Notes: generated from the letters alone by a model not told the origin. 64,000 nt of DNA from an uncultured Acidobacteriota bacterium (GCA_963749265.1 CAVVML010000030.1:328-64327), one strand, 5' to 3'; counted from the first letter of the stretch, positions 25,661 through 63,725 are shown. Program-made: numbers and translations.

Positions 25661-25736
25661 GTTGAGCGTTAAGAGTTGAGAGTTAAGGGTTAACGCCACG
25701 CTCAACACTCAACTCTCGACACTCAACTTCAACTCA
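25661..25736. repeat. Palindromic heptamer tandem-repeat element (GTTRAGN)n...(CTCRACN)n
   Basis: GTTGAGC GTTAAGA GTTGAGA GTTAAGG GTTAACG ... CTCAACA CTCAACT CTCGACA CTCAACT. Confidence 0.9.
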
Positions 25737-26840
25737 ATGTCTCCGCACCCCATACCTCCCATCCTGCGAAAGCGCGAGTCCGGCCGCTTCCAGCTCGAAG
25801 AGCCCGGCGAGGACCGTCGCGGCGGGCAGCTCGAGCGCCTGCGCGAGCTCCTCCGCGGAAAGCGATTCGTCCCGGGACAGCGCTTCGAGCATACGCCTCG
25901 CCTCCTCCGAAAGCTCCGTGAAGGGGACCGGGGCGGCGACGCGCTGAGGCTGCGGGGTGCCGACCGCCGGAAAGAGCTCTGCGAGCACGTCCTCGGCGCC
26001 GCGGCAGAGGATCGCGCCGTCCTTCAGAAGCGCGTGCGTGCCGGCGGAGGTCTCCGAGAAGACCGAGCCCGGAACGGCGAACACGTCCCGCCCGAAATCG
26101 GCGGCGAGTCGCGCGGTGATGAGGGAGCCCGAGCGGCGTGACGCTTCCACCACGACGACTCCGGCCGAAATTCCGGCGATGACGCGATTGCGGATCGGAA
26201 AGTTCTGCGGCCGCGGCTCGGTGCCCGGAGGGTACTCGGAGAGCAGAAGGTGTTCCGAAGCGAGGCGCTCCTTCAGCCGTCCGTGCTCGCGCGGATACTC
26301 CACGTCGATGCCGCACCCGAGGACCGCGATCGTTCCTCCGGGGCCCTCGAGCGCGGCCTCGTGCGCCGCGGCGTCCACGCCGCGCGCGAAGCCGGAAGCC
26401 ACCGCCACGCCCGCGGCCGAGAGCTCCAGCGCCAGCTTCCAGGCGACGTCCCGGCCGTAGCGCGAGGCGTCCCGCGAGCCCACGATCGCGACGACCGGAA
26501 GGCGCAGCCGCTCGAGCCGCCCCAGCGCAAACAGAAGAAACGGCGGGTCGGCGATCTCCCGCAGGGCCTCGGGGTACTCGGGTTCGAAGGCGGTCACAAG
26601 GCGCAGGCCCGTCTGCTCGATCCGGGCCGCCCAGCGCTCGGCCTCGGAGTCGTCGCCGGCCCGGAGCACGGCCCGCGCCCGGTCCCGAGAGCCCAAAAAC
26701 GCGGACAAGTCCTCCTCTTCGGAGGACAGAAGCCCCTCCACGCCTCCGCGCGCGCGGATCAGGGGCCAGAGTTTTTGCGGGGTCACGCTGCCACGCGCCC
26801 ACGACAACGCGGCGCGACGATCCAGGGAATGCGGGCTCAC
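25734..26840 (-). CDS. dprA: DNA-processing protein DprA (Smf)
   Basis: AIVGSR, SGFARGVD, FPIRNRVIAG and SGSLITA; upstream of topA. Confidence 0.95.
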   Translation of the reverse strand: MSPHSLDRRAALSWARGSVTPQKLWPLIRARGGVEGLLSSEEEDLSAFLGSRDRARAVLRAGDDSEAERWAARIEQTGLRLVTAFEPEYPEALREIADPPFLLFALGRLERLRLPVVAIVGSRDASRYGRDVAWKLALELSAAGVAVASGFARGVDAAAHEAALEGPGGTIAVLGCGIDVEYPREHGRLKERLASEHLLLSEYPPGTEPRPQNFPIRNRVIAGISAGVVVVEASRRSGSLITARLAADFGRDVFAVPGSVFSETSAGTHALLKDGAILCRGAEDVLAELFPAVGTPQPQRVAAPVPFTELSEEARRMLEALSRDESLSAEELAQALELPAATVLAGLFELEAAGLALSQDGRYGVRRH

Positions 26841-26942
26841 GGATTTAAGTAATCATTCATCGAGCAAGAGGCGACAATTCTCCGATCCTCCGTCGACCCC
26901 AAACCTATAATAGCCACCCCGACGCGGGAGGCGGGTGACAGC

Positions 26943-27314
26943 TTGAGGAAAAGCGGCGCGTGGATCCTCACCCTACTTCTTGTCGCGAGCGCGTGCACGT
27001 CGTACTCCCACACGGACCTCCCCTCGACGCAGCTCGCCTTCGGCACCGACGTCGCGAAGGAAGGCCACTGGCGGGAAGCGGCCTTCCGGTTCGAGCAGGC
27101 GATCGCGAAGGACCCCTCGAACGCCCGCGCCCACAACAACCTCGCCGTCGCGATGGAAGCCAACGGCGATTTCGCGCGCGCGCTCGTCGAGTACAAGAAG
27201 GCGCTCGAGCTCGAGCCCAACAACGAGTACATCCGGCGCAACTACGCGCGATTCGCCGAGTTCTACACCTCCTACACGAAGACCACCGGAAAGGCCGCCA
27301 GTGCGACGCCGTAA
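26943..27314 (+). CDS. TPR-containing lipoprotein
   Basis: Lipobox ASAC; AHNNLAVA...YKKALELEP TPR pattern. Confidence 0.85.
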   Translation: MRKSGAWILTLLLVASACTSYSHTDLPSTQLAFGTDVAKEGHWREAAFRFEQAIAKDPSNARAHNNLAVAMEANGDFARALVEYKKALELEPNNEYIRRNYARFAEFYTSYTKTTGKAASATP

Positions 27315-28008
27315 GCTCGCGGCGGCCGCCGCGGCCCTGCTCCTCTTGCTCGGACCGATGCCGGCCTTCGCCGGCGTCGACCAGGTGCGGCTGCGGCTGC
27401 CGCTGAAGGCGAAGCTGCCGCTGCGCGGCAACGAGCGGATCGCGCTCGCCCCCATGATCATCGTGACCGACGCCGAGAAGGGACGCGACAAGCGCCTCGC
27501 CAACGTCGACCTCCAGGCCGAGTTCCAGCGCTTCCTGAAAAAGCAGCTCGAGAAGCGGACACGTTTCGAGATCATCCAGACGCCGCCGGACGTGAAGCTG
27601 CCGACGCAGGTCCTCACCGAGCTCGCGAAGGCGCAGGAGTTCTGGGCCTCGGTCGGCACCCAGACCGGCGCCGAGATCGTGGTCTCGGGAAGCCTCGAGT
27701 TCAAGGTCGAGGACCGCTCCGGCTACAAGACCGAGGAGTACACCTCGCCGATCGACGGCCGGACGTACTACCGCCAGGTCTACGTCGAGCAGACGGGCTT
27801 CCTCTTCGACATCGTGCTGCTCGTCCTCGACGGCCACACCGGAGAGAAGCTCCTCCAGGATCAGTTCAAGGACTTCCGCCAGACCGGCAGCCGCCGTGCC
27901 GACGAGCTTCAGGGACTCTTCGAAAACCTCTTTTCGCTGGAGAGCCAGATCCTGAACACGTTCGTGGCCCGTGATCGCGAGGCCGAACGCTACATCTTCA
28001 CCAACTGA
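27301..28008 (+). CDS. Exported hypothetical protein, possibly CsgG/TolB-N-like alpha/beta fold
   Basis: GTG start, signal peptide, GC3-rich codons and VGTQTGAEIVVSGSL pattern. Confidence 0.7.
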   Translation: MRRRKLAAAAAALLLLLGPMPAFAGVDQVRLRLPLKAKLPLRGNERIALAPMIIVTDAEKGRDKRLANVDLQAEFQRFLKKQLEKRTRFEIIQTPPDVKLPTQVLTELAKAQEFWASVGTQTGAEIVVSGSLEFKVEDRSGYKTEEYTSPIDGRTYYRQVYVEQTGFLFDIVLLVLDGHTGEKLLQDQFKDFRQTGSRRADELQGLFENLFSLESQILNTFVARDREAERYIFTN

Positions 28009-28024
28009 TCCTCCGAGGACATCA

Positions 28025-30997
28025 ATGAAGAAGTCGTCCGCCGTCTCCGTGCCCGTGCTCGTGCTTGTCGCCCTCGCCGTCGCCGCGGGGCTCTTCCTCC
28101 CCGCCGCCGCCTCGGCCCAGTTCGTCGATCCGTACTACACGTACTTCGGCGTCAACAAGATCGCCTACGACACCTTCACGTGGAAGACCTACCGCTCGAC
28201 GCACTTCCTCATCTACTTCCATGACCGCGAGGAGATGTCCCTGCAGAAGGTCGCGTCCTACGCCGAGAGCGCCTACGACGAGATCTCGCGGTCGCTGAAT
28301 TTCCAGATTCCCAAGCCGATCAACATCATTTATTACGCGACCCATACCGAGTTCGAGCAGACGAACACGCTCGCCGGCTTCATCCCCGAAGGCGTGGGCG
28401 CCTTCGCCCTGCCGACCCGCAACCGGATGGTCCTGCCGATCGACATGCCCGACGAGGAGCTCCAGAAGCTCCTCGCCCACGAGCTCACGCACGTCTTCCA
28501 GTTCGAGATCTTCTTCGGCGGCAGCTTCATCCGGGCGTACACCTCGGGCGCGCCGCAGTGGCTGACGGAGGGCATGGCCTCCTACTTCGCCGCCGACGAG
28601 GACTCGAAGGACATGATGGTCCTCCGCGACGCCGTCCTCGCCGACCAGGTCCCCCAGATCGCCGAGCAGGGCATCTTCGGCTTCTTCGCGTACCGCTTCG
28701 GCCACGCCGTCTTCGACTTCATCGAGGCCGAGTGGGGCAAGGACGGCGTGCGCGACTTCGTCTTCGAGTACCGCGGGCAGCTCGGCCCGAACATCGACCG
28801 CGTCCTCCAGCGCACCTACGGCGTCAACGCCGAGGACTTCGACATCCGCTTCCGCCGCTACCTCCGCCAGCGCTTCTTGAAGATGCTGACGGAGCGCGGC
28901 GAGCCGATCGACTTCGGAGACCAGGTCCGTCTCTCGCAGGAGGGCTCGGCCGAGGTCTCGGTTCGCCCCTTCCCCTCCGGAGACTTCGGCGCCGCGATCT
29001 CGACGCTCGGACAGGACGCGAACGTCGTCGTCTTCTCGCCCCGCGACCGCAAGCTCTACCGGAACCTGACCAAGGGGTTCAAGACCGACTACGAGTACAT
29101 CGTCGCGCAGTGGCTGACGACCGGCCCCGTCGGAGGCGTCGACCTCGCGGTCTCCCCCGACGGCAACTCGCTCGCGTTCTTCGTCAAGCGGGAGCGCGGC
29201 CGCGAGCTCCTCCTCCTCAACGCCCTGGACGGAAAGATCGAGACGATGATCCCCATGCCGGGCCTCGACCAGCAGCTCAACCCGGCCTTCTCTCCGGACG
29301 GCAAGCAGATCGCGTTTCTCGCGGTCAAGGGCGGCGATGCCGACATCTACACCTACAGCTTCGACACCAAGGCCATCGTCAACATCACGCAGGACCGTTC
29401 CTTCGACTTCGCGCCGACCTTCTCGCCCGACGGCGAGTGGGTCTACTACTCCGGCGTCCAGGGCACCTCGGCCAAGATCTTCCGGATCCGTCCGGGAGTC
29501 GAAGGCTCGCGCGAACAGGTCACGTACGGCGACTCGAACGACGAGGACGCCGCCGTCTCCCCCGACGGCAAGCGCCTCTTCTTCTCCTCGGACCGCAACG
29601 GCGGCGTCTACAACGTCTACTCCGTGGACCTGGCGAACGGGGAGACGAACATGTTCACGAACGTCGTGGGCGGCTGCTTCTCGCCGGCGATCCTGACCGC
29701 CCGCGACGGTTCCGAGCGGCTGGTGTTTTCGGCCTACTACAAGCGCCGGTTCATGCTCTACGTCACCGACGCGAAAAAGCCGTACCGGAAGCTCGCCGAG
29801 CTCAACCCCGCGCCGTCGCCGGCCGGGCCGGCCACGATCGCTCCGTTCCAGCCCTCGATCGAGGTCTCCGTCGACCCCGAGAAGATCGAGCGGCCGAGCC
29901 GCAAGCTCTTCCTCGAGAACGCCCAGATCCTCGCGGGCGTCGCCTCCGACGGCCAGTTCCTCTCCAACACGATCCTGACCTTCGGCGACAACCTCGGCGA
30001 CCGCCGGCTGCAGGCGATCCTCTGGACCGTGTCCGGATACACGAACGGCAGCCTCTCGTACATCGACATCGGCTCACGCATGCAGAAGGGCGTCGTCGGC
30101 TACTACAACCGCAACTACTACTACGTCCTCAATCCCGACGGCACGATCGGCACGCAAAGCAACTACCAGTACATCGGAGGCAACCTCTTCGCCTCCTACC
30201 CCTTCAATCGCTACTACCGGCTGGAAGGGGAGCTCGGTTACAACGACCGGGATTTCAACGGGTATCCGGTCTGGGTCGAGACCCCCGAGGGCTCCGGGAT
30301 CATCGGTATTCCGACATCCAACGGCTATGCGACGCTCGGCACGCGCCTCGTCGGCGACACGACGCAATACGAATCCTTCGGACCGATCTCCGGCCGGAAG
30401 CTCTCGATCGGCCTCTCCTGGTCGCCCTACATCAGCGGCACGAAGTTGCCCGGACAGGATGGCATCACGTTGACATGGGACGCGACGATGGACTTGCGCC
30501 ACTACTTCAAAGTGACGCGCCGCTCGCTGTTCGCGATCCGCCTCTACGGGTTCCGGGCCGATGGCAACCTTCCGGACGTTCTGGCCTTCGGCGGCATCGA
30601 CACGCTGCGCACGTTCCCGGTCTACGGCATCGTGGGCAACACGGCGGCGTTCTTGAACATCGAGTTCCGCTTCCCGCTCATCGACCTGCTCGCGACGCCG
30701 GTGCTCGGCATCCGGGAGATCCGAGGCAAGGTCTTCATCGACGTCGGCGGCGCGAAACTCAAGAACCAGCCCTGGCAGTTCTGGGACGATTACACCCTCT
30801 GCGGCAACGGCAACACCGTTTTCGGCGGCGCTCCGGCGGGCTGCAACGGCGCGCAGGGCGGATACTCCGACTGGGGATTCGGATTCCAGACGAACTTTCT
30901 CGGGCTGCCGCTGCACTTCGACGTCGCGAGGCAGTGGAACTTCAAGCAGCAGCTGACCGACTTCAAGCTGTTCTTCTACCTCGGGCAGGAATTCTAG
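28025..30997 (+). CDS. Outer-membrane protein: gluzincin (MA) peptidase domain, PD40/TolB-like propeller and Omp85/BamA-type barrel
   Basis: HELTH...WLTEGMASY, repeated SPDG units, LRTF...GNTAAFLNIEFRFP and terminal FYLGQEF. Confidence 0.85.
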   Translation: MKKSSAVSVPVLVLVALAVAAGLFLPAAASAQFVDPYYTYFGVNKIAYDTFTWKTYRSTHFLIYFHDREEMSLQKVASYAESAYDEISRSLNFQIPKPINIIYYATHTEFEQTNTLAGFIPEGVGAFALPTRNRMVLPIDMPDEELQKLLAHELTHVFQFEIFFGGSFIRAYTSGAPQWLTEGMASYFAADEDSKDMMVLRDAVLADQVPQIAEQGIFGFFAYRFGHAVFDFIEAEWGKDGVRDFVFEYRGQLGPNIDRVLQRTYGVNAEDFDIRFRRYLRQRFLKMLTERGEPIDFGDQVRLSQEGSAEVSVRPFPSGDFGAAISTLGQDANVVVFSPRDRKLYRNLTKGFKTDYEYIVAQWLTTGPVGGVDLAVSPDGNSLAFFVKRERGRELLLLNALDGKIETMIPMPGLDQQLNPAFSPDGKQIAFLAVKGGDADIYTYSFDTKAIVNITQDRSFDFAPTFSPDGEWVYYSGVQGTSAKIFRIRPGVEGSREQVTYGDSNDEDAAVSPDGKRLFFSSDRNGGVYNVYSVDLANGETNMFTNVVGGCFSPAILTARDGSERLVFSAYYKRRFMLYVTDAKKPYRKLAELNPAPSPAGPATIAPFQPSIEVSVDPEKIERPSRKLFLENAQILAGVASDGQFLSNTILTFGDNLGDRRLQAILWTVSGYTNGSLSYIDIGSRMQKGVVGYYNRNYYYVLNPDGTIGTQSNYQYIGGNLFASYPFNRYYRLEGELGYNDRDFNGYPVWVETPEGSGIIGIPTSNGYATLGTRLVGDTTQYESFGPISGRKLSIGLSWSPYISGTKLPGQDGITLTWDATMDLRHYFKVTRRSLFAIRLYGFRADGNLPDVLAFGGIDTLRTFPVYGIVGNTAAFLNIEFRFPLIDLLATPVLGIREIRGKVFIDVGGAKLKNQPWQFWDDYTLCGNGNTVFGGAPAGCNGAQGGYSDWGFGFQTNFLGLPLHFDVARQWNFKQQLTDFKLFFYLGQEF

Positions 30998-30998
30998 G

Positions 30999-31090
30999 GA
31001 CGGGAGGCAGGCCGCAGTAGGCGGGAGGCAGGACCAGCCCGATCGCGCTGTCTTCCGCTGCCTCCGGCCTCCCGCTTCCTGCCTCCTGTC
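30999..31090. repeat. Palindromic heptamer tandem-repeat element (GGCAGGA)n...(TCCTGCC)n
   Basis: GACGGGA GGCAGGC CGCAGTA GGCGGGA GGCAGGA ... TCCGGCC TCCCGCT TCCTGCC TCCTGTC. Confidence 0.75.
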
Positions 31091-31117
31091 CCGGCACTCC
31101 CTTACAATCCCCGCAAC

Positions 31118-31894
31118 GTGTCTTCCGGCCGGTCACTCGCGATTCGGGTTCTCGGGCCCTACGGAGGGTCCGCGCCCGGCTATCGGATGACGACGTTCGT
31201 CATCGACGGCGAGACCGCGCTGGACGCGGGCGCATTGACCGACGCGCTCCCCATCTCCGCGCAGCGCCGTCTCCGCCGCGTCGTGCTCACGCACGCGCAC
31301 CTCGACCACGTGGCGTCGCTGCCGTTTCTGGTCGAGAACGTCTACGGCCGGGAGAGGCCGCTCGAGATCATCGCTCCGGCGCCCGTGCTTCGCACGCTCT
31401 CCCGACACGTATTCAACGACGCCGCGTGGCCCGATTTTTCGCGCCTGCCCTCGCGCCGTCGGCCGACGATCGTGTTCCGGCCCGTGGCCGTCGGCCGGCC
31501 CTTCGCGGCGGGCGGTGTGCGGTTCACTCCCATTCCCGTCGATCACATCGTCCCGGCCTTCGGCTACCTCGTCTCGAAGCCCGGCCGCGCCGTGCTCTTC
31601 TCGGGCGACACGATGCCGACGCGCCGGCTCTGGGAGCACGCCGGCCGCGCCCGCGACCTGAAAGCGATCTTCCTCGAGGTGTCGTTTTCGGACTCCCAGG
31701 CGACGGTGGCCCGGGCGTCGTGTCACCTCACGCCGCAGCTGCTGCCCGCGGAGCTGGCGAAGGCGCCGGAGCGGGTGCCCGTGTTCCTGTACCACATGAA
31801 GCCGCCGTCGGTCTCCCGCATCCGCCGCGAGGTCGCCCGCCTCGACGAGCCGCGCCTGCGGCTGCTCGAATCGGAGAGATCCTTTCGCTTCTGA
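31118..31894 (+). CDS. Metallo-beta-lactamase-fold class II cyclic nucleotide phosphodiesterase
   Basis: THAHLDHV, HVFNDAAWPDF, FSGDT, HLTP and YHMKP. Confidence 0.85.
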   Translation: MSSGRSLAIRVLGPYGGSAPGYRMTTFVIDGETALDAGALTDALPISAQRRLRRVVLTHAHLDHVASLPFLVENVYGRERPLEIIAPAPVLRTLSRHVFNDAAWPDFSRLPSRRRPTIVFRPVAVGRPFAAGGVRFTPIPVDHIVPAFGYLVSKPGRAVLFSGDTMPTRRLWEHAGRARDLKAIFLEVSFSDSQATVARASCHLTPQLLPAELAKAPERVPVFLYHMKPPSVSRIRREVARLDEPRLRLLESERSFRF

Positions 31895-31895
31895 G

Positions 31896-31974
31896 AGTCC
31901 AAGTGTCGAAATGTTGAAATGTCGAAGGTTCCGCGTTTAGCAGTTCGACGCTTCGACGCTTCGACATTCCGACT
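31896..31974. repeat. Palindromic octamer tandem-repeat element (TGTYGAAR)n...(YTTCRACN)n
   Basis: TGTCGAAA TGTTGAAA TGTCGAAG ... GTTCGACG CTTCGACG CTTCGACA. Confidence 0.9.
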
Positions 31975-31979
31975 CGGCT

Positions 31980-33452
31980 TCAGGAAGGAATCGCGACCGC
32001 GATCCCGCGCCAGCGCTGGAGACGGAAACGCCCCACGCTCAGGGCGCAACGGGTGATGTGGCCCAGCACGATGGCCGTCCAGATGCCTCCCGCGGTCAGC
32101 CCGCCCGTCGCCTGGAGCACGGTGCAGATGCCGAGAGGAATGACGACCTGGGACACGATCGAAATGTAGAGCGGCCCGCGCGTGTCGCCGGTGCCCTGGA
32201 GAGCGCCCGTGAAGCTCAGCGCCACGGTGATGAAGAGCCCCGAGACCGAGAGATAGCGCAGGAGCTGCTGTCCGAGGGCGCGCGCCGTGGGATCGTCCAT
32301 GCCGAAGATGCCGAGGAGCAGGTTCGGAACGGCAAAGAACAGGATGCCGACGAAGGCCGCGGCGCCCAGCCCGATGCGCGAGGCCACGCGCACGCCTTCG
32401 ACGACCCGATCGGGCCGGCCCGCGCCCAGGTTCTGGCCGGCGATGGCGGCGGCGGCGCCCATCAGGCCGACCGACGTCCACGTGATGAGCGAGAAGAGCT
32501 CGGTGTAGGCGACGGCATACGCCGCCTGGGCCGCGGCGCTCTGCGGAAGCGATCCGATGAATCGCAGCAGGAACACACCGGCGACGTTCATGACGATGCC
32601 CTGGAAGCCCGTGGGCAGGCCGAAACGAAAGAGCTCGCGGATGACGGCGAGATCCGGCGCCTTGCGCATTCCGGGCTCGAGGTGGATCACCGCGTCCGGC
32701 TTGGTCAGCCGCCAGAGGCCGTAAGCGGAGACGATCGTGCTGCTCGCAATCGTGCCGAGCGCCGCGCCGAGAGTCCCCAGACGGGGAATCAGGATCACGT
32801 TGAAGACGATGGTCAGCGCCGTCATCATGAGGCCGAGCCGCAGCGGCGTGCGCGCGTCGCCGGCGGCGCGCATCGCTCCGCTCAGCAGGAAGAAGACCAT
32901 CATGCCGACGATGCCGACGAGCATCGCCCGCAGAAACGGCAGCGCCTGGATCCGGACTTCGGGCGCGGCGTGGACCAGATCGAGCAGGCTCGGGGCGAAG
33001 ATCCAGCCGGCCGCGCCCAGCGTCACGGACAGCCCCACGGCCGTCAGGAACGCCTGGTAGAAGACGCGGTTCACCTTCTCGGGCTGGTTCGCGCCGGCGA
33101 AGCGCGCGATGAGCACGCCCATTCCGCTGAAGACGGAGCTCGCGAAAACGATGACGACGATGACGATCTGCCAGCTCACGCCGATGGCGGCGTTCGCCGT
33201 GTAGCCCACGAAGTGGCCGACCATCGCGTGATCGATGATTCCCTGCAGGCCCGCGATCACGTTCTGCAGCATGGTCGGCCAGGCGAGCTTCCAGACCGCC
33301 GGACCAATGGGTCCCTCGACCAGCGAACGATCGAACGTCTTCCGAGGCCGCGCCGGCGCGGCGAACGCCTTCGCCTCGGCCACCCCGTCGGGGACCGCGG
33401 CCGCGCCCTCCGTCAAGACGGGCGCCTCGGGGGAATCTCCGACAGGGGTCAT
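31980..33452 (-). CDS. MATE family efflux transporter
   Basis: KLAWPTM, RAAGDARTP, AGQNLGAG and multiple TM helices. Confidence 0.92.
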   Translation of the reverse strand: MTPVGDSPEAPVLTEGAAAVPDGVAEAKAFAAPARPRKTFDRSLVEGPIGPAVWKLAWPTMLQNVIAGLQGIIDHAMVGHFVGYTANAAIGVSWQIVIVVIVFASSVFSGMGVLIARFAGANQPEKVNRVFYQAFLTAVGLSVTLGAAGWIFAPSLLDLVHAAPEVRIQALPFLRAMLVGIVGMMVFFLLSGAMRAAGDARTPLRLGLMMTALTIVFNVILIPRLGTLGAALGTIASSTIVSAYGLWRLTKPDAVIHLEPGMRKAPDLAVIRELFRFGLPTGFQGIVMNVAGVFLLRFIGSLPQSAAAQAAYAVAYTELFSLITWTSVGLMGAAAAIAGQNLGAGRPDRVVEGVRVASRIGLGAAAFVGILFFAVPNLLLGIFGMDDPTARALGQQLLRYLSVSGLFITVALSFTGALQGTGDTRGPLYISIVSQVVIPLGICTVLQATGGLTAGGIWTAIVLGHITRCALSVGRFRLQRWRGIAVAIPS

Positions 33453-33516
33453 GAGTGTTACTACGATGTCAACGCGGTTTCGGTCGCAACTTCTTTCGAA
33501 AATCGCTCGACAATTC

Positions 33517-35573: not shown

Positions 35574-35590
35574 GGGCTCATCACGAGACG

Positions 35591-35671
35591 AGTTGAAATG
35601 TTGAAATGTTGAAGCGTCGAAGGGCTGATGCACCGTCCCCTTCGACATTTCAACACTTCGACCCTTCGACT
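35591..35671. repeat. Palindromic octamer tandem-repeat element
   Basis: AGTTGAAA TGTTGAAA TGTTGAAG CGTCGAAG ... CTTCGACA TTTCAACA CTTCGACC CTTCGACT. Confidence 0.9.
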
Positions 35672-35710
35672 TTCCCCATTCAAGCGCTCGCCCGCTCGGC
35701 TGCCCCGTCG

Positions 35711-36310
35711 CTACGCGCGCGAAGAGAAGCGGTGAGCGCCGTCCGACGTCAGCTCCGGATGGAACGTCGCCGCGGCCACGTTGCCCTGCCGCACGAGCAC
35801 CGGCTCGCCGCCGTGCGTCGCGAGGATCTCGACGCCGGAGCCCGCCCGACGGATCCGGGGCGCGCGGATGAAGACGGCCGGCATCGCGCCTCCCAGCGCC
35901 GGCGCATCGACCTCGCCGACGAACGAGTCGACCTGACGGCCGTAGGCGTTGCGCTCCACGGAGATGTCGATGAGGCCCAGGCCCCTCTGCGCCGGATTCG
36001 TCACCTCGCGGGCGAGCACGATCGCGCCGGCGCACGTGCCGAGCACCGGGGCGGCCGGTCTCCGCGAGGTTGCGGATGCCGTCCTCCCACGGCGCGGACT
36101 CGAAGAACTTCCAGAGCGTCGTCGACTCGCCGCCCGGCATGACCAGGCCCGCGGCGCCGTCGAGGTCCGGGGCCGCTTCGCCTCGAAGGAGTCGAGACCG
36201 ATCTCCGCGAGCGCCCGGCGGTGCGCCTCGAAGTCGCCCTGGAGCGCGAGGACGGCGACGCCGGTCCCGCCTCCTGCCTCCGGCCTCCTGCCTCCTGGCA
36301 TTCTCACCAT
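35711..36310 (-). CDS. pdxT: Pyridoxal 5'-phosphate synthase glutaminase subunit; internal frameshifts
   Basis: [33 protein letters not shown] and FHPELT. Confidence 0.93.
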
Positions 36311-39878: not shown

Positions 39879-45031
<5,153 letters not shown>

Positions 45032-46214: not shown

Positions 46215-46223
46215 CTCGAGAGT

Positions 46224-48999: not shown

Positions 49000-49078
49000 A
49001 GTCGAATGTCGAAGCGTCGAAGCGTGAATTCGAGGCGCTTCAACCTTTGAACCTTTCAACACTTCGACTTTCTCGACT
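49000..49078. repeat. Palindromic octamer tandem-repeat element between dnaA and rpmH
   Basis: AGTCGAA TGTCGAAG CGTCGAAG ... CTTCAACC TTTGAACC TTTCAACA CTTCGACT. Confidence 0.85.
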
Positions 49079-49090
49079 CGCCTCGCCCGC

Positions 49091-53802: not shown

Positions 53803-53805
53803 ACC

Positions 53806-53981: not shown

Positions 53982-53986
53982 TTGGT

Positions 53987-54796: not shown

Positions 54797-54883
54797 GGAG
54801 GCCTCCGTTTGGCGTTTGGCGTTTGCGTCAGGCGTTACCCGAGATCGTAGCGCCGGAGCGAAGTCGTGGGAGACAATCCCGGC

Positions 54884-56770
54884 GTGCGATACGAGGTCCT
54901 GGTCATCGGCGGCGGACACGCGGGCATCGAGGCGGCGCATGCGTCGGCTCGCATGGGCCGTCGCACGGCGCTTCTGACCGGGGCGCTCGACGCGATCGGC
55001 CGCATGTCCTGCAACCCGGCGATCGGAGGCCTCGCCAAGGGCCAGCTCGTCCGGGAGATCGACGCGCTCGGCGGGGTCATGGGGGGCCTCGCCGACGCCG
55101 CCGGCATCCAGTTCCGGATCCTCAACCGTTCGCGCGGGCCGGCGGTGTGGGGGCCGCGCGCCCAGTGCGACCGGACCCTCTACGCGAGGCTCGCCCGCGC
55201 GCGCATGGAGGAGACGGAGAACCTGACCGTCCTCCAGGGCATGGCGGAACGCCTCACGACTGCGCGGGGGCGTGTGACCGGAGCGATCACCTCGAACGGC
55301 GAAGCGATCGACGCGGACGCCGTCGTCGTGACGACGGGAACGTTTCTCAACGGCCTCATGCACACGGGAACGCGGCGCACGCCGGGCGGGCGCGTCGGCG
55401 AGCTGGCTTCGGCGGGGCTCTCGGCCTCTCTTGCCTCGCTCGGGCTCGCCCTCGGCCGCTTCAAGACGGGAACGCCTCCGCGCGTGCATCGCGATTCGGT
55501 GGACTACGCCGCGTGCGCGCCGCAGGACGGCGACGATCCGCCGGTTCCGTTCTCGTTCCGGACTGACGTCCGGCGGCTGCCCGCTGCGGCAGGCCAGGCG
55601 CGCTGCTGGCTGACGGCGACGAATCCGCGCGTGCATGCGCTCATCCGCGCCCACCTGCACGAAAGCCCCATGTATTCGGGCCAGATTCACGGCACCGGCC
55701 CGCGCTACTGCCCGTCGGTCGAAGACAAGGTCGTGAAGTTCGCGGAGAAGGAGTCCCACACCATCTTTCTCGAGCCCGACGGTTGGGATTCCGAAGAGAT
55801 CTACATCAACGGCCTCTCGACCTCGCTTCCCGAAGAAGTGCAGCGCGCGATTCTCGACGAGATCCCCGGGCTCTCGAGCGCGGGCATGCTGCGTCCCGGC
55901 TACGCGGTCGAGTACGACGTCGTTTTTCCGGAGCAGCTCGCGCCGACGCTCGAGGCGCTCGAGGTCCCGGGCCTGTTTCTCGGCGGACAGATCAACGGCA
56001 CCTCCGGCTACGAAGAGGCCGCGGCGCAGGGTCTGCTCGCCGGAATCAACGCGGCGCTCGGGGCGCGGGGAGAGGCGCCCTTCGTCCTGGATCGTTCGGA
56101 GGCGTACGCCGCGGTCATGGTGGATGACCTGACGACGAAGGGCGTCGAGGAGCCCTACCGGCTGTTCACCTCGCGAGCCGAGTACCGCTTGCTGCTCGGC
56201 GTGGATACCGTGCTCCCCCGTCTGCTTCCGCACGGACGGCGCCTGGGGCTGATCGACGAAGGGGAGTACCGGACGGCCATGGAGGGCGAGAACAGGATTC
56301 TCCGGGCCGAGGCGGCGCTCCGAGAGCGTGTTTTCAATCCTTCCGCCGCGAACCGTGCGCTCTTCGCTGAGACTCTCGACATTGCGCTCGATGTGCCTGT
56401 ATCCGCGTTTAAACTATTGCAAAGAAAAGACTTATCGTCAATCAAGATCTCGGCCGTTGCCCCGGAGGCCTTCGAGGGGCTCTCGTCCGAAGAACGGAGC
56501 TACCTGGAGAGCCGGGTCCGCTACGAGGGCTACATCCGGCGGGAGAAGGAACGGCTCGAGAGGCTGAAGCCGTTCGAGTCGCGGCCGATCCCCGAAGACT
56601 TCCGTTACGCGGGCCTTCCCGGTCTCTCGCACGAGATCGTCGAAAAGTGCACGCGCAAGCGACCCCGAACCGTCGGCGACGTCGCCCGGCTTCCCGGCGT
56701 GACGCCCGCCGCCGTCGCGATAATCTCGGCGCATGTCGCTCGATTCGGAGGAGGCTCCCAGCCCTCCTGA
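54884..56770 (+). CDS. mnmG: tRNA uridine-5-carboxymethylaminomethyl modification enzyme MnmG (GidA)
   Basis: [33 protein letters not shown] and [16 protein letters not shown]. Confidence 0.98.
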
Positions 56771-57377
56771 GGCCTTCCGGCGGCTGCTCCAGGACGGGGC
56801 CCGCCGCTTCGAATTGAGCCTCCCCGATCCCGTTCTGGACCTCCTCGCGGCGTACCTGTCCGAGCTCGATGTGTGGCGCCGCAGGGTCAATCTCACCGGC
56901 CGCCTCTCCCCGGCGGAGCTGGGACTCCATGCGCTGGAATCCGTGCTCGGGGCGCAGCTAATTGCTCATGGCGCTAGGGTTGTTGATGTCGGCAGCGGCG
57001 CCGGCTTTCCGGGACTCCCCCTCGCGATCGCTCGCGACGACCTCGCCGTCACCCTCGTCGAGCCCCGCGCCAAACGTTGCGCCTTCCTGCGGCATGTCGT
57101 TCGAACCCTCGGACTGAACAACGTCCAGGTGCTCGAGGCTCGCATCGAGCAGGTCGGCGGGCAGACCTTCGATGTGGCGACGACGAGGGCCGTCGGGCAC
57201 TTTGCCGATTGGCTGGCCGGCACTCCCTTCCTGGACGCTTCCGGCCTCGTGCTGGCCTGGGCAACCGACACGGCCGGTCTCGAGACCGCGCTCGGTCCGA
57301 AGTTCCGCGTTGACGGCGCCATCTCAATTCCCGGTTCCGAAAAGCGCCGCATCGTCGCGTTCCGGCGCTCCATGTAG
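56733..57377 (+). CDS. rsmG: 16S rRNA m7G527 methyltransferase RsmG (GidB)
   Basis: [17 protein letters not shown] and TRAV; follows mnmG. Confidence 0.93.
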
Positions 57378-57393
57378 CGTTCCACGTGGAACA
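57378..57393. promoter_or_regulatory. parS centromere site
   Basis: CGTTCCACGTGGAACA, close to consensus TGTTNCACGTGAAACA; upstream of parA. Confidence 0.9.
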
Positions 57394-57446
57394 CTCCCGA
57401 TTTGTCCTTCGGACTTCGGGCGCGAGCGACGATAATCCCCGACCAC

Positions 57447-58211
57447 ATGAGCCGGATCCTCGCGATTACCAACCAGAAGGGCGGCGTCGGAAAGACCACA
57501 ACCGCGATCAACCTGGCAGCCGCGCTCGCCGCCTTCGACAAGAAAGTTCTTCTCGTCGACCTCGACCCCCAGGCCAATGCGACCTCCGGCCTCGGCTTCT
57601 CCAAGCGGGAGGAGGCCACGATCTACGGAGCCCTGCTCTCGGGAAACATGGGTGGCAGCGTCCGCCAATCAAGCTTCGCCAACCTCTGGGTCGTCCCCTC
57701 CGGCCGGGACCTGGTCGGGGCCGAGATCGAGCTCGTCGGGCAGCCCGATCGGGAAGCGAAGCTCCGGTTCGCGCTTGGCCCGGTCCGGGGCACGTACGAC
57801 TTCGTGATCATCGACTGCCCCCCGACTCTGTCGCTTCTGACCGTGAACGCCCTGGCCGCGGCGGACGCGGTCCTGGTGCCGATCCAGACCGAGTACTTCG
57901 CCCTCGAGGGGCTCACGGAGCTGCTCGAGACGGTCGAGCGCGTCCGGAACTCTTTCAACCCTCTTCTCGCCATGGAGGGCATCGTCTTGACGATGTTCGA
58001 TGAGCGGACTAACCTCGCCAGACAGGTCGTCGACGACATCCGCAAGCACTTCGGCGACAAGGTTTTCGAAACCGTGATACCGCGGAACATTCGTCTCGGC
58101 GAGGCGCCGTCCTTCGGCAAGCCGGTCCTTTCCTACGACATCAAGTCGAAGGGCGCCGAGGCCTACCTCGCTCTCGGGCGGGAGCTTTTGAAGCGGCGGG
58201 AGGGCGCATGA
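57447..58211 (+). CDS. parA: Chromosome partitioning ATPase ParA (Soj)
   Basis: NQKGGVGKTT, DLDPQANAT, IDCPP and EAPSFGKP. Confidence 0.97.
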   Translation: MSRILAITNQKGGVGKTTTAINLAAALAAFDKKVLLVDLDPQANATSGLGFSKREEATIYGALLSGNMGGSVRQSSFANLWVVPSGRDLVGAEIELVGQPDREAKLRFALGPVRGTYDFVIIDCPPTLSLLTVNALAAADAVLVPIQTEYFALEGLTELLETVERVRNSFNPLLAMEGIVLTMFDERTNLARQVVDDIRKHFGDKVFETVIPRNIRLGEAPSFGKPVLSYDIKSKGAEAYLALGRELLKRREGA

Positions 58212-59071
58212 CGAGCGGAAAAAAGCCGGCCCTGGGGCGGGGCCTTTCGGCTTTGCTGCCCGGAAAAGACGATGACGTTCCACGTGGAACGCAGCGGGAG
58301 ACCGAGCTCGGCCAACTGAGGCCCTCGAGATTTCAGCCCCGCCGCGACTTCTCGGAGGGCGCTCTGGCCGACCTCGCCCAATCGATCCGGGAGCAGGGGA
58401 TTGTCCAGCCCATCGTCGTGGTCGCCCGAGGTGAAGGTTTCGAGATCGTCGCGGGGGAGCGCCGCTGGCGGGCAGCCAGGCTGGCCGGCCTCGACCGGGT
58501 GCCCATCGTGGTCCGGGAACACACGTCGGATCGGGAGCTCCTCGAGCTGGCTCTCGTCGAGAACCTGCAGCGCGAGGATCTGAACGCGCTCGAAGCCGCC
58601 GAGGCCTACGCGCGTCTCCGCGAGGAGTTCCAGCTCACGCAGGATCAGATCGCCGACCGGGTTGGCAAAGAGCGGGCAACAGTAGCTAACTCATTGAGAC
58701 TATTGAAGTTATCAGCAGTCGTCAAGGATCGTGTCCGCTCGGGAGAGCTTTCGGCCGGGCACGCCAAGGCTCTCCTCGCCCTCGCCTCCGTCGACGACCA
58801 GGAACGACTCGCGGAGGAGATCGTCCGGCGTGCGCTGTCGGTGCGGCAGGCGGAGAAGCGGGCCGCGACGATGGCGGCCGGCGACAAGGTGGTGCGCGAC
58901 AAGCGCCGGGATCCGTTCACGCGCGACGCCGAAGAAAAGCTCACGCGCCGCCTGCAGACGAAGGTCCGCATCGTCCGGAAGCGTCGCGGCGGAAGGATCG
59001 AGCTGTCGTTCGGATCCGAGGAAGAGCTGATCGGTCTGTTCGAGAATCTGATGAAAAACCAGTGGCAGTAG
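58208..59071 (+). CDS. parB: Chromosome partitioning protein ParB (Spo0J)
   Basis: LGRGLSAL, QPRRDF, AGERRWRA, ENLQREDL and HTH. Confidence 0.97.
   Translation: MTSGKKPALGRGLSALLPGKDDDVPRGTQRETELGQLRPSRFQPRRDFSEGALADLAQSIREQGIVQPIVVVARGEGFEIVAGERRWRAARLAGLDRVPIVVREHTSDRELLELALVENLQREDLNALEAAEAYARLREEFQLTQDQIADRVGKERATVANSLRLLKLSAVVKDRVRSGELSAGHAKALLALASVDDQERLAEEIVRRALSVRQAEKRAATMAAGDKVVRDKRRDPFTRDAEEKLTRRLQTKVRIVRKRRGGRIELSFGSEEELIGLFENLMKNQWQ
58276..58291. promoter_or_regulatory. parS site inside parB
   Basis: Perfect 16-bp palindrome CGTTCCACGTGGAACG. Confidence 0.88.
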
Positions 59072-59100
59072 GGACCAGGAGGCAGTAGGGCCTGCCTCCT
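59064..59100. repeat. Short GGCAG(T/G)A heptamer palindrome overlapping the parB stop
   Basis: GGCAGTA..CCAGGA GGCAGTA GGG CCTGCCTCCT. Confidence 0.55.
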
Positions 59101-59122
59101 CGTACCTTTCGAAGGAGATGCC

Positions 59123-59503
59123 ATGAAGACCCGCGGCGACGGCGCAACGCTCGACGGATTCCTCGACAAGGGCAGCCGCTTCAAGGGCGAGCTGTCGTTC
59201 GACGAGACCTTTCGCATCGACGGCAAGTTCGAGGGCACGATTCCCTCCGGAAGCGAGCTCATCCTCGGGGACACCGCCGAAGTCGACGCCCAGATCCGGG
59301 TCGAGCGCATCTCGATCAACGGGACGCTCAAGGGCAGCGTGCACGCCACCGAGCGCATCGAGATCCATCCGCGCGCGCGCGTGACCGCGGATCTGCACGC
59401 GCCGGTGCTGCGGATCGAAGAGGGCGCGTACTTTCAGGGAACCTGCGACATGAGCGGCGACGCGGCGCCGAAGCTTCTGGAGATGCCGGGCACCCGCAAG
59501 TAG
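59123..59503 (+). CDS. Bactofilin (polymer-forming cytoskeletal protein)
   Basis: FRIDGKFEG, INGTLKGSV and LRIEEGAYFQGTC. Confidence 0.92.
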   Translation: MKTRGDGATLDGFLDKGSRFKGELSFDETFRIDGKFEGTIPSGSELILGDTAEVDAQIRVERISINGTLKGSVHATERIEIHPRARVTADLHAPVLRIEEGAYFQGTCDMSGDAAPKLLEMPGTRK

Positions 59504-59509
59504 CTGCCG

Positions 59510-59601
59510 GTCAAGGGTTAAGAGTTGAGAGTTGAGTGTTGAGCGTCGGCGCGCGTCCTGCCGGGCCCCCACGCTTAACTCTCGACGCTCGACACTTGAC
59601 T
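59510..59601. repeat. Palindromic heptamer tandem-repeat element upstream of the atp operon
   Basis: GTCAAGG GTTAAGA GTTGAGA GTTGAGT GTTGAGC ... CTTAACT CTCGACG CTCGACA CTTGACT. Confidence 0.9.
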
Positions 59602-59651
59602 CCCCCTGTGTTATTCATCCGCGGTTCCGCTTACGTCGCCAGGAAATCTCC

Positions 59652-60086
59652 ATGATCGAACTACCCAACGTGACGAGTCTCTATGTGCTTCTTGCCTTCG
59701 GGGTGAGTTACTTCATCCTGAAGAGATACCTCTTCGTTCCTCTCTCGGGGATCCTCGAGGCACGCGAACGTGAAGAGCACGAAGCGCAGAAGGCCTACGC
59801 CGAGAGCCTCGCCGCACTCGAGAAGGCCGTGGCCGCGGGAGAACAGAAGATCGTCCTCGCGCGGCGCGAGGCGCTGAAGACGCGCGAAGATCTTCGCGGC
59901 GAAGGCTCCGCGCTGCTCGAGCAGAAGCTCGCCGAGGCCCGCGCGAAGGCCTCGGAGGAGATCGCTCGCGGCAGCCGCGAGATCGACGCTCAGGCCTCCG
60001 AATCCGCCCGCCAGCTTCCCGAGAAGGCCCGGGGCCTCGCGCGCGAGCTCGCGGAGAAGATCCTCGGCCGAAAGCTCGCCGCGTGA
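59652..60086 (+). CDS. ATP synthase F0 subunit b' (first of two b-type genes)
   Basis: N-terminal TM, YLFVPL..ILEARE and coiled coil. Confidence 0.88.
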   Translation: MIELPNVTSLYVLLAFGVSYFILKRYLFVPLSGILEAREREEHEAQKAYAESLAALEKAVAAGEQKIVLARREALKTREDLRGEGSALLEQKLAEARAKASEEIARGSREIDAQASESARQLPEKARGLARELAEKILGRKLAA

Positions 60087-60646
60087 CCCTGTCCTTTCTT
60101 CCATCCACCGCGCTCGCGACCGCCCTCCTGTCCTCCTCCGAGGAAGGGGAGCATGCGAGCTCTTTCCTGGGCGTGCCGATGACGATCTGGCAGATCGTCA
60201 ACCTGGTCCTGTTTCTCGCCGTGCTGATCTATTTCGTGGCCAAGCCGATGAGCGCGGCCTTTCGAAAGCGCCAGGAGGAGATCGAGGAACGCCGCCGCGA
60301 GGCCGAGAAGCAGAAGGCGTCCGTCGAGCGGCTCTCCGCCGACATCCGCGAGCGCACGGCGAAGCTCGAGCGCGAGATCGAAGAGATCCGGAAGCAGGGA
60401 ATCGTCGAAGGGCAGGCCGCTCGGGCCGAGCTCGCGGCGCGGGCCGACGAGGAAGTGGCTCGCGTCGGCAAGGAATCGAAGGAAGAGATCGAGCGGCGCG
60501 TGGCCGCGGCGCGCGAGCAGCTGCGCCGCGCCGCCGCGGATCTGACGGCGCAGAGCGCCGAAGGGATCCTGTCGCGCGAGATCAACGACGCCGACCGCCA
60601 GCGGCTGCTGACCGAGAGCGTCGAGAAGCTGAAGGCCTCGCGATGA
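60083..60646 (+). CDS. atpF: ATP synthase F0 subunit b
   Basis: WQIVNLVLF...KPM...R and coiled coil. Confidence 0.9.
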   Translation: MTLSFLPSTALATALLSSSEEGEHASSFLGVPMTIWQIVNLVLFLAVLIYFVAKPMSAAFRKRQEEIEERRREAEKQKASVERLSADIRERTAKLEREIEEIRKQGIVEGQAARAELAARADEEVARVGKESKEEIERRVAAAREQLRRAAADLTAQSAEGILSREINDADRQRLLTESVEKLKASR

Positions 60647-61183
60647 GCTTCGCCATGCCGTACGCCAGGGCGTTTCTCGAGACCGCCCCGAAGGGCTACG
60701 ACGTCGAGGCGTTTCTGGCGTCCGCCGGAGACCTCGCCCGCGCGATCGAGAAAGATCCCGCGCTGCGAGCCTTTCTCGCGGCGCCGGCGGTCCCGGAGGA
60801 GGCCAAGCGGAAGGCCATCGCCGAGCTCGCGACGCGCGCGGGCGTCGACGCGTTCGGCGCGCGGTTTCTCGAGCTGCTCTTGAGACACCGGCGCATCCTC
60901 GCGCACGGGCGTCATCCTCCAGGGGGTGCGCAAGAGCTTCGACGCTTCGCGCGGGATGCTCGAGGGCAGCGTCACCGTCGCCGCTCCGATCGGGGACGCC
61001 GAACGGGCGACGATCGAGCAGGCTCTCGGCGCGAAGCTGAACGGCCGGGTGCGTCTGAAAGTCGCGGTCGATCCGAAGATCCTGGGCGGTTTCGTGGCGC
61101 GCGTGGGCTCGAGCGTTTTCGACGCCTCCGCCGCGGCCGGAATTCGCCGTTTCCAGGAGCAAGCGAAAGGAACGGGAGCCTGA
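60643..61183 (+). CDS. atpH: ATP synthase F1 subunit delta; frameshift near 60905
   Basis: PYARAF and [21 protein letters not shown]. Confidence 0.92.
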
Positions 61184-61184
61184 G

Positions 61185-62717
<1,533 letters not shown>

Positions 62718-62742
62718 CCGCCTGAGACCGCCTGACGAACTG

Positions 62743-63630
62743 ATGGCTTCTCTCATCGACATCCGCCGCCGGCTGCGCTCGGTCAAGAGCACGCAGCAGA
62801 TCACCAAGGCCATGAAGATGGTCGCGGCGGCGAAGCTCCGGCGCGCGCAGGACCGGGTCGTCGGTGCCCGCCCCTACGCGAAGCTCCTCTCGGATGTGCT
62901 CGCGCCCGTCACGGCGCAGGCGGGGGAGCTCAAGCACCCGCTCCTCGCGGTGCGACCCGAGAAGAAGGTCATCGTCATGGTCGTCGCGGGAGACCGCGGC
63001 CTCTGCGGCGCCTTCAACACGAACGTCCATCGGGCGACGGCGCATCTGATCGGTTCGCACCCGGAGTGGACCGAGGTGCGCCTGCTCCCGGTCGGGAAGA
63101 AGGCCGTCGAGTACTGGAAGCGCCGCAAGTACCCGTTCACCGAGAAGACGTATCCCGCCATCCTCGGGGATCTCAAGTACGCGCACGCCCGGGAGATCGC
63201 CACCTTCCTCGCGGAGGAGTTCCTGGCCGAGCGCGTCGACGCCGTGTACATCGTCGTCAACGAGTTCCGCTCGATCCTCTCGCAGGTCGTGCAGGTGGGT
63301 AAGCTCCTGCCGCTGTCGACGGAGCAGGCCGCTTCGAAGGACGCCAAGACCCCCGAGAAGGCCGCCCCGCCGGTCGACTACCTCTACGAGCCCGACGCGC
63401 CGTCGATCCTGGCGTGGCTGCTGCCGCGATACCTGGAGTTCACGGTCTACCGCGCGCTCGCCGAGTCCGCCGCGGCCGAGATGGGCGCGCGCATGACGGC
63501 GATGGATTCGGCCTCGAAGAACGCCGGCGAGATCATCGACAAGCTCACGCTGACCTACAACCGCGCCCGCCAGGCGCGCATCACGAAGGAACTGATCGAG
63601 ATTGTGTCGGGCGCGGCCGCGCTGGAGTAG
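62743..63630 (+). CDS. atpG: ATP synthase F1 subunit gamma
   Basis: ITKAMKMV, DRGLCGAFN and NRARQARITKELIEI. Confidence 0.98.
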   Translation: MASLIDIRRRLRSVKSTQQITKAMKMVAAAKLRRAQDRVVGARPYAKLLSDVLAPVTAQAGELKHPLLAVRPEKKVIVMVVAGDRGLCGAFNTNVHRATAHLIGSHPEWTEVRLLPVGKKAVEYWKRRKYPFTEKTYPAILGDLKYAHAREIATFLAEEFLAERVDAVYIVVNEFRSILSQVVQVGKLLPLSTEQAASKDAKTPEKAAPPVDYLYEPDAPSILAWLLPRYLEFTVYRALAESAAAEMGARMTAMDSASKNAGEIIDKLTLTYNRARQARITKELIEIVSGAAALE

Positions 63631-63633
63631 AGA

Positions 63634-63725
63634 AGTCGAAATGTTGAAATGTCGAAGTGTTGAAGGGTCGAGACGTTGACAACGCGTTCAGAGCTTCAAC
63701 GCTTGAACACTTCAACACTTCAACT
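63634..63725. repeat. Palindromic octamer tandem-repeat element between atpG and atpD
   Basis: AGTCGAAA TGTTGAAA TGTCGAAG TGTTGAAG ... CTTCAACG CTTGAACA CTTCAACA CTTCAACT. Confidence 0.9.

Follow-up and report, generated by a model that had tools for sequence, protein, structure and literature searches.

What are seven palindromic arrays of short tandem repeats doing at the junctions of core operons in an uncultured Acidobacteriota bacterium? The question is raised by a stretch of 64,000 nucleotides (the window: contig C30:328-64327 of the source assembly, G000, which spans 4.63 Mb in 33 contigs at a G+C of 0.688), where such elements stand between gyrB and gyrA, atpG and atpD, dprA and topA, and elsewhere. 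Each consists of a run of tandem heptamers or octamers, a loop, and a run of the reverse-complement units. Scans of the source genome, a genus comparison set of 41 genomes (G000 plus 40 relatives, G001 and so on) and metagenome loci show that the window elements are the gene-less form of a cassette that carries a TIGR02436/PF05635 four-helix-bundle gene between like arms. The cassette gene encodes the S23p protein of 23S rRNA intervening sequences (IVS), a distant relative of Avd, the accessory protein of diversity-generating retroelements (DGRs).

Inspection of the sequence upheld the seven elements and the unit classes that an earlier note had described from the same DNA. Heptamer units (GTTRAGN...NCTYAAC) build the elements at 25661, 42524 and 59510, and octamer units (GTYGAARN...NYTTCRAC) build those at 31896, 35591, 49000 and 63634. 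The predicted fold of each element was compared with those of 200 shuffles. All seven fold as a single long hairpin with ΔG between -30.9 and -50.9 kcal/mol and z between -2.25 and -7.55. No shuffle folds as well for five of the seven; 7 of 200 do for gyrB/gyrA and 6 of 200 for dnaA/rpmH. All seven lie between protein-coding genes, and Pfam matches support the flanking-gene names given in the earlier note (topA, dprA, a gyrA fragment, bactofilin, ATP synthase B, dnaA, L34, atpG and atpD). No rRNA or other Rfam family reaches its gathering score in the window.

The window elements belong to a large family. The whole source genome was scanned with a tolerant search in which GTYRA cores were chained at 6-9 nt and TYRAC cores were sought within 100 nt, with at least six units in total. 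At least 97 copies have GTYRA units followed by TYRAC units. Four matches have the opposite order, each being one real arm beside coding sequence, and the reversed sequence yields none. A strict scan found 51 pairs in the GTYRA-then-TYRAC order and none in the other, with unit periods of 7/7 in 32 copies and 8/8 in 14. The claim that the arm order never reverses is no finding in itself, since a palindrome of this kind reads in the same order on its complementary strand and the order is thereby fixed within a family. The unit is a conserved hexamer (GTYRAG or GTYGAA) followed by one or two free bases, with about 4-6 units per arm. Across the 97 copies the median length of the main stem is 29 bp, the commonest arm has about five heptads (39/97), and the mean ΔG is -41.9 kcal/mol at a mean length of 91 nt. 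The flanking bases are remnants of units, which makes the 5' side rich in purines and the 3' side rich in T/C. The loops are 6-81 nt long and none holds a four-helix-bundle gene. The loops of the 97 copies have no homology to one another beyond degenerate inner units, and none to the cassette save one motif match. No copy has a partner at ≥90% identity over ≥85% of its length (0/97); the best pair is 86% identical over 78 nt.

The arms are not exact mirror copies, as had been noted for the window. The seventh base of the heptamer is Watson-Crick complementary between arms in 44 of 153 cases, against 39.6 expected if the two bases were independent. The two variable core positions are complementary in 509 of 650 cases. 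Shuffling between elements gives 463 ± 10, with 0 of 2000 trials reaching 509, and shuffling within elements gives 496 ± 6, with 50 of 2000 reaching it. The two arms of one element are therefore alike mainly as wholes, and the position-specific signal is weak. These results show that the units within an element evolve in concert.

A single PF05635 match is present in the source genome (83 bits, C18:617014-617232), and it lies inside a cassette at C18:616873-617344. The left arm of GTCGAGN units (616873-616908) starts 6 nt past the upstream stop, the right arm consists of NCTYRAC units (617317-617344), and the arms are 418 nt apart. A search for arms 100-4000 nt apart in this genome returned three candidates, of which only the PF05635 cassette is true; the other two are neighboring independent elements. 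The ratio of gene-less to gene-bearing copies in the source genome is about 97 to 1. In the genus, a PF05635 match above cut-off occurs in 16 of 41 genomes, G000 included. Tandem heptamers stand on both sides of the gene in 14 of 19 genus loci by script and in three more by eye (L163, L168 and L158); the remaining two are L169, which is imperfect, and L170, which a contig end truncates. In these cassettes the left array reads as the reverse complement of the right one, with a unit sequence that varies by locus. On TIGR02436 (cut-off 24) the encoded proteins reach 94-118 bits, and they match the DGR Avd profile weakly; among themselves they are 32-43% identical. Of the solved structures, 2gsc (Xanthomonas campestris XCC0516, five chains) and 2rld come closest.

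The same arrangement extends beyond the genus. The best 80 of 579 confirmed metagenome relatives were taken, using a 5-row subset alignment as the query, and 67 of these have at least 200 nt on both sides. Inverted arrays surround the gene in 56 of the 67 loci, compared with 4 of 67 in a reverse-not-complement control, and 65 of 67 have an array on at least one side. The earlier note had proposed a cassette system that inserts small genes between the arms inside housekeeping operons. The cassette part of the proposal stands, in that the same arms flank a four-helix-bundle gene in C18, in 14-17 of 19 genus loci and in 56 of 67 metagenome loci, and profile matches bear out the gene type named in the note, a TIGR02436-type four-helix bundle. 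The part concerning the window is not supported: no open reading frame (ORF) was found between the arms at its junctions, in a comparison of atpG/atpD at 30 genus loci and of five junctions in G001 and G023. A conserved TCGCGACAAT(A/T) motif, confined to this genus, lies 20-60 nt upstream of the four-helix-bundle gene, in the stretch that separates it from the arm (L158-L173 and L186), and may be the cassette promoter. The motif is not general; 9 of 74 metagenome cassettes match it at ≤2 mismatches, which is close to chance.

Comparison of orthologous junctions shows how the elements come and go. Filled alleles, for which the earlier note had recommended a search, were absent from the window junctions compared, namely atpG/atpD in 30 genus loci and five junctions in G001 and G023. 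At atpG/atpD, 27 of the 30 loci are empty, with spacers of 10-39 nt, and three (G000, G048 and G002) have hairpins that use three different units and hold no gene. The junction is empty in four near relatives (G023, G001, G016 and G014; 26-50-nt spacer) whose flanks are 88-98% identical, identity to the source genome being 97-98% for G023 and 96% for G001. The 105-nt element is thus complete in the source genome and absent in these four, with no intermediates, and the insertion is peculiar to G000. Intergenic sequence is already much diverged between G000 and G023, so that a "recent" insertion is a relative term and the missing near-identical donor is suggestive only. By these alignments the atpG/atpD copy was already gene-less on arrival, which leaves both the "empty landing pad" and the "deletion scar" unproven for the seven elements of the window.

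Other junctions differ in the kind of element they hold. The dprA/topA element keeps its position in G023 and G001, where it differs by point changes and, in G001, by an additional unit. The gyrB/gyrA array hairpin is shared by G000 and G001; in G023 the corresponding position (L358, C12:117267-117364, equivalent to window 42519-42615) is occupied by an unrelated 97-nt nested inverted repeat of equal length that has no tandem units. The gyrB/gyrA junction thus retains a hairpin, but not always of one type. Between bactofilin and atpF, both arms are built of GTTGAG in G000 and of GTCGAG in G001, and the left arm is decayed in G023. Between dnaA and rpmH, G000 has GTCGAAR octamers, G001 a TCRGCTN-family hairpin and G023 a decayed hairpin. 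These comparisons show that the elements are DNA insertions whose turnover within the genus proceeds on the time scale of species.

The peptidase junction that holds the C18 cassette bears on whether the gene-less hairpins could be deletion scars, that is, full cassettes that lost the gene by deletion between the arms. The cassette is present in G000, G023 and G046 among the 30 loci listed, and also in G001. G019 (L198) and G056 (L213) have one arm and a TCGCGACAAT-like motif at this junction and the gene is gone, as expected of a scar, and one gene-less loop of the source genome (C1:130757) contains TGCGACAAT. That loop is the one convincing motif match among 97, however, and loops go down to 6 nt with no mutual homology. 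Hairpins occupy 3 of 30 atpG/atpD loci and a gene occupies none, and the 97-to-1 excess of gene-less copies also argues against loss as their general origin, which we consider improbable. Most of the other listed peptidase-junction loci have a few bases between two convergent stops. In G047 (L201), the cassette junction downstream of the S9 peptidase gene is occupied by a perfect inverted repeat, some 19 bp long, that has no tandem units.

Across genomes, the unit that flanks a resident gene is also an abundant gene-less unit in other genomes. GTAAGCA, which flanks the G024 gene, has 116 matches in G024, 28 in G052, 40 in G004 and none in G053 or G020. GGTCCCA, from the GGCCCA-type arms that flank the G004 gene, has 41 matches in G004, 18 in G052 and none in G024, G053 or G020. 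GTTGAGN arrays occur in 6 of the 41 genomes (172 in G000, 62 in G001, 26 in G023, 23 in G016, 3 in G002 and 1 in G013). The exact four-unit GTTGAGN array was found at ≥123 loci of many phyla, and among the matches listed, 14 have at least three CTYRAC within 160 nt. The listed matches (L035-L157) come from Bacteroidota, Verrucomicrobiota, Planctomycetota, Kiritimatiellia, Fibrobacterota-type metagenome-assembled genomes, Gemmatimonadota, Acidobacteriota, Chloroflexota, Cyanobacteria and Betaproteobacteria. Some of these arrays reach 9-14 or more units, and in many cases the array that comes next consists of another heptamer, octamer or nonamer and is not the exact complement.

Strict heptamer arrays of at least four units were counted per 400 kb in six sampled genomes and in the source genome. 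The PF05635-negative genomes G018, G042 and G003 have 0 arrays, and PF05635-negative G055 (78% complete) has 3 in one 5-kb cluster. Among PF05635-positive genomes, G020 has 9, G024 has 1, and G000 has 4.3 on average. The trend fits a link between gene and arrays in a sample that is small and not clean. The G055 cluster (C11, L310-L329; sample positions 208172, 209847 and 213153) consists of three single arms, 1.6 and 3.3 kb apart, at gene junctions. Their units are GTCGAGA x5, then CTCAACC/CTCGACT x4, then CTCAACT x4, and no PF05635 gene was found in G055. These arms may bracket whole genes.

Known mobile-element machinery does not follow the arrays. Repetitive extragenic palindromic (REP) sequences and their hairpin-forming doublets (REPINs), associated with Y1 transposases termed RAYTs (REP-associated tyrosine transposases), are described in the available text of two papers as short intergenic palindromes in tens to hundreds of species-specific copies with proposed roles in termination and mRNA stability (PMC3733652, PMC3116915). 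The elements studied here are likewise short, intergenic, palindromic, lineage-specific and present in about 100 copies, and could be REP/REPIN palindromes moved by a RAYT or miniature transposable elements with inverted repeats (MITEs) moved in trans. The Y1 transposase profile (Y1_Tnp) has matches in 28 of the 41 genus genomes and does not track the arrays. It has one weak match in the source genome (36.7 bits) and none in the array-holding genomes G001, G023, G016, G020 and G048, whereas G018, G042 and G003 have 3-5 matches and 0 arrays per 400 kb. A REP is a palindrome of 20-40 bp that has a tagged end; such an end is lacking here, and the arms consist of tandem 7/8-nt units. Unlike MITEs, the 97 copies have no whole-length or internal homology, their loops are unrelated, and no target-site duplication is visible at the single atpG/atpD pair. 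Movement by either route is very improbable. An origin of the arrays from Avd plus a reverse transcriptase, or from a telomerase-like enzyme, is disfavored by the finding of RVT_1 in 1 of 41 genus genomes, which is not G000.

The position of the copies relative to genes was determined by frame-walks beside each element, as the gene calls cover only 68% of the source genome owing to its many frameshifts. Among the 97 copies, 39 are between tail-to-tail genes, 48 between co-directional genes, 4 between head-to-head genes and 6 are unclear. The numbers expected from adjacent gene pairs, drawn from our own rough gene calls, are 14.4, 66.4 and 10.2, respectively (chi-square p 1e-11), which corresponds to a 2.7-fold enrichment between convergent genes. 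The distance from the stop codon to the first core lies between -21 and +14 nt in 117 of 130 cases, with peaks at -5, -12/-13 and -19. The stop falls within a unit in about 39 cases, as the TGA inside a GTTGA unit, and periods of 7 and 8 bring the unit TGA into all three frames within three units on both strands. The stop-supplying property is not universal; by eye, the GGTCCCA and ACGGRAA arms of relatives contain no stop. These data show that the copies sit at, or provide, the stop codon of the upstream gene and favor convergent junctions.

The window elements illustrate this placement. The dprA/topA heptamer hairpin (25658..25737, both genes on the minus strand; ΔG -42.9, z -7.55) has the dprA stop (25734-25736) within its outermost degenerate unit. 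The octamer hairpin at 31895..31979 (ΔG -36.3, z -3.97) forms the entire spacer between the convergent stops (31892-31894 and 31980-31982) of a metallo-beta-lactamase-fold gene (plus) and a MatE gene (minus). The octamer hairpin at 35589..35678 (ΔG -36.8, z -5.18) is about 30-40 nt downstream of a minus-strand SNO/PdxT-type glutaminase gene (stop at 35711). The gyrB/gyrA heptamer hairpin (42524..42610; ΔG -34.8, z -2.53) begins 3 nt past the true stop of minus-strand gyrB (42613-42615), upstream of gyrA. The bactofilin/atpF heptamer hairpin (59510..59602; ΔG -50.9, z -5.15) starts 6 nt past the bactofilin stop (59501-59503) and about 50 nt ahead of the ATP synthase B-type gene. The atpG/atpD octamer hairpin (63631..63737; ΔG -39.8, z -4.14) directly abuts the atpG stop TAG (63628-63630) and precedes the ribosome-binding region of atpD. 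The dnaA/rpmH octamer hairpin (GTCGAAR units, 49001..49090; ΔG -30.9, z -2.25) occupies a divergent spacer and is one of just four head-to-head copies in the genome. Translation of three frames located the gyrB C terminus, NLDI*. A frame shift about 14 codons before the true stop (window 42613-42680, minus) places this canonical C terminus in another frame, and the called gyrB ORF therefore passes through the hairpin, down to 42515.

This placement could also be read as that of ordinary transcript-end hairpins, either terminators without a U-tract or 3' stabilizers, that evolved in place, acquired repeats by slippage and are not mobile. Nearly all copies stand directly after stops, they are enriched between convergent genes, their stems are very stable, and the G023 hairpin without arrays has the same length and place at gyrB/gyrA. 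Evolution in place does not account for the same hexamer at about 100 unrelated junctions, for the same arms around a gene cassette, or for a complete atpG/atpD element that is absent from four near relatives without intermediates. A T-run of ≥4 follows only 5 of 97 copies (a T-run of ≥3 within 8 nt follows 18 of 97), in agreement with the earlier observation that most elements lack a U-tract. Most copies thus differ from an intrinsic (Rho-independent) terminator in having no U-tract directly after the stem, and the T/C-rich tail is a partial unit. Four copies lie between divergent genes. We regard an origin as non-mobile transcript-end hairpins as quite unlikely.

The relationship between arm and protein suggests another role for the arrays. 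Arm units co-diverge with the protein across the metagenome loci (Spearman 0.30, a value obtained from related loci that are not independent), and arm 5-mers are common to 96% of pairs at ≥80% protein identity compared with 25% at 45-55%. The arrays could be DNA or single-strand binding sites with one hexamer per subunit, the candidate reader being the pentameric four-helix-bundle protein and the hairpin being secondary; the protein would mark, protect or propagate the arrays. Besides the co-divergence, this would fit a hexamer core kept across about 100 copies next to a seventh base that is free and not complementary between arms, arms of commonly about five units alongside five chains in 2gsc, and the lack of the strand asymmetry that a one-strand RNA function would produce. 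The source genome has a single PF05635 gene, yet it holds GTYRAGN, GTYGAARN, GGAGGCA and TCAGC families, G020 holds at least four families, and arrays are present in G055 and G048, which have no detectable gene. Recognition of the arrays by the protein is on this evidence unlikely. A more specific form, held at the same doubtful level, is a pentameric ring that would read about five hexamers in the manner of TRAP, which reads spaced triplets, and would make the protein and its arrays a new kind of mobile or self-maintaining element, one able to do without transposase, integrase and reverse transcriptase. The roughly 100 gene-less hairpins would then be non-autonomous copies, and the long-unexplained excess of heptamers in many phyla a footprint of the element, a suggestion that is correspondingly tentative.

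The closest parallel for the cassette is the ORF-bearing 23S rRNA IVS of Coxiella burnetii. As described in the available text of PMC4990558, its terminal inverted repeats form a stem of about 28 bp that is cut by RNase III, the 5' arm contains tandem heptamers of variable copy number, and the loop holds the S23p/PF05635 gene. The same organization is stated there for Leptospira and Brucella, and the authors term the IVS a selfish element of unknown origin. The long stem (median 29 bp here) and the tandem heptamers are common to both systems, and the gene is shared only with the full cassette. Unlike the Coxiella IVS, which is in helix 45 of 23S rRNA (helix 25 or 45 across IVS-type cassettes), the elements here lie between protein-coding genes, and the window's seven and some 97 copies in all are gene-less.

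With modest confidence, we favor the reading that the hairpins are gene-less copies of an IVS-type foldback cassette whose stems are probably RNase III-type or transcript-end hairpins. A transcript of either strand would form a stem some 29 bp long in which every unit contributes a 1-nt mismatch. By analogy with the RNase III-cut Coxiella stem, this structure would act as a double-strand-RNA processing or transcript-end signal. Thanks to processing at the stem, an insertion that lands behind a gene or within an operon would do no harm, and a by-product would be that host transcripts are defined or split, for example at gyrB|gyrA, atpG|atpD and dprA|topA. Slippage or arm-to-arm correction may keep the units alike on both arms. 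The analogy makes an mRNA-processing hairpin, the alternative offered in the earlier note, plausible.

Several observations weigh against this interpretation. Stability was compared between strands for the 48 co-directional copies; 27 fold more stably as the sense strand and 21 less so (Wilcoxon p 0.64), with 134 G-U pairs in the sense strands against 133 in the antisense strands. Nothing in this symmetry points to selection on one transcript strand; a design serving both strands would look equally symmetric. The pairing of a conserved hexamer with an unconstrained seventh base has the look of sequence-specific recognition or templating, which a purely structural RNase III stem does not explain. 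Copy-and-paste movement is unsupported, since there are no near-identical pairs among the 97 copies and their loops are unrelated, and no clear target-site duplication was seen at atpG/atpD, the single clean empty/filled pair. The link between gene and arrays is loose, with 3 arrays in PF05635-negative G055 and just 1 in PF05635-positive G024, and G048 has a hairpin at atpG/atpD without a PF05635 match. The four copies that include dnaA/rpmH cannot be transcript ends because the genes are divergent. The assembly is rich in frameshifts, which introduces some error into unit lengths and stop positions. RNA-level data were sought by word share in public sequencing runs; none of the 24 listed reaches half, the best DNA run having a share of 0.41 and the best RNA run 0.30.

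In design, the elements resemble Drosophila foldback (FB) transposons, which have long inverted arms of short tandem subrepeats and variable length, with a center that is variable or absent and carries genes in some copies. FB transposons are eukaryotic and kilobase-sized, and the likeness is one of design only. Intergenic arrays of heptamers are also known from cyanobacteria as short tandemly repeated repetitive (STRR) sequences.

Among bacterial repeats, the GGGAATC heptamers of X. campestris and X. citri are the nearest match. The available text of PMC4692102 reports tandem arrays in which four units are commonest and 70-75 convergent pairs per genome that are capable of forming stem-loops. 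About 90% of the pairs are intergenic, at a mean of 28 nt to the upstream ORF versus 160 nt to the downstream one, and lengths differ between sister species (PMC4692102). Convergent arrays of at least two heptamers that are intergenic and nearer to the upstream ORF are likewise found here. In contrast to GGGAATC, whose G-tracts were investigated for their capacity to form G-quadruplexes, the units GTTGAG and GTYGAA lack any G-run of three and cannot form such a structure. That text draws no link to a four-helix-bundle protein, though the solved family member 2gsc comes from X. campestris. The TAACTGA heptamers of Beggiatoaceae, cyanobacteria and some Bacteroidetes are described, in the available text of PMC4679880, as intergenic arrays of 2-6 units that are lineage-specific and patchy across phyla, with units that put stops in all three frames and end any overlapped ORF. 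Unlike the arrays here, the TAACTGA sets in that text are direct repeats mostly just upstream of start codons, with one inverted set (PMC4679880). The closest published descriptions are thus the Xanthomonas GGGAATC pairs (PMC4692102) and the ORF-bearing IVS (PMC4990558), and neither, in the text available, states a general link between gene and arrays. A full-text search, which was incomplete and did not extend to database family notes, found no paper that ties this gene family in general to inverted heptamer arrays.

Many bacterial genomes have an excess of heptamer tandem repeats, and TIGR02436/S23p is a large family; neither has an assigned function in the literature examined. The source genome shows both sides, with about 100 gene-less heptamer or octamer hairpins and one gene-bearing copy with the same arms. 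The dynamics are visible among close relatives as the atpG/atpD insertion, the replacement of one unit family by another at a single site, and decay. If the stems are processing signals, housekeeping expression (gyrB-gyrA, the atp operon and dprA-topA) would be shaped lineage-wide. If a protein reads the arrays, they would represent a new type of mobile element and provide a testable function for an Avd-related protein.

The source genome and its nearest relatives look like indel-rich assemblies, which fits a marker completeness of 67% at full genome size. Such breaks split atpG in four relatives (G001, G023, G017 and G012) and also affect the ATPase and peptidase genes beside the C18 cassette.

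Detectors that make no assumption about unit sequence were also run. A k-mer chain detector recovered 54 of the 97 known elements with 3 control matches; two earlier repeat-agnostic detectors were weaker (18/97 and 34/97), and the reversed-sequence control was invalid for the first of these because reversal preserves inverted repeats. Two minor families were seen in the source genome. GGAGGCA...TGCCTCC elements occur at C9:54391, C13:216811, C17:159125, C19:14137, C20:151128 and C25:6040, and TCAGC-type...GCTGA-type elements at C13:367323 and C29:24347. The TCAGC-type elements resemble the G016 cassette in its arms and also the hairpin that G001 has at dnaA/rpmH. A half element at C2:160630-160700 has three GTCGAGA units and no partner arm, followed by a terminator-like G+C hairpin with a T-run.

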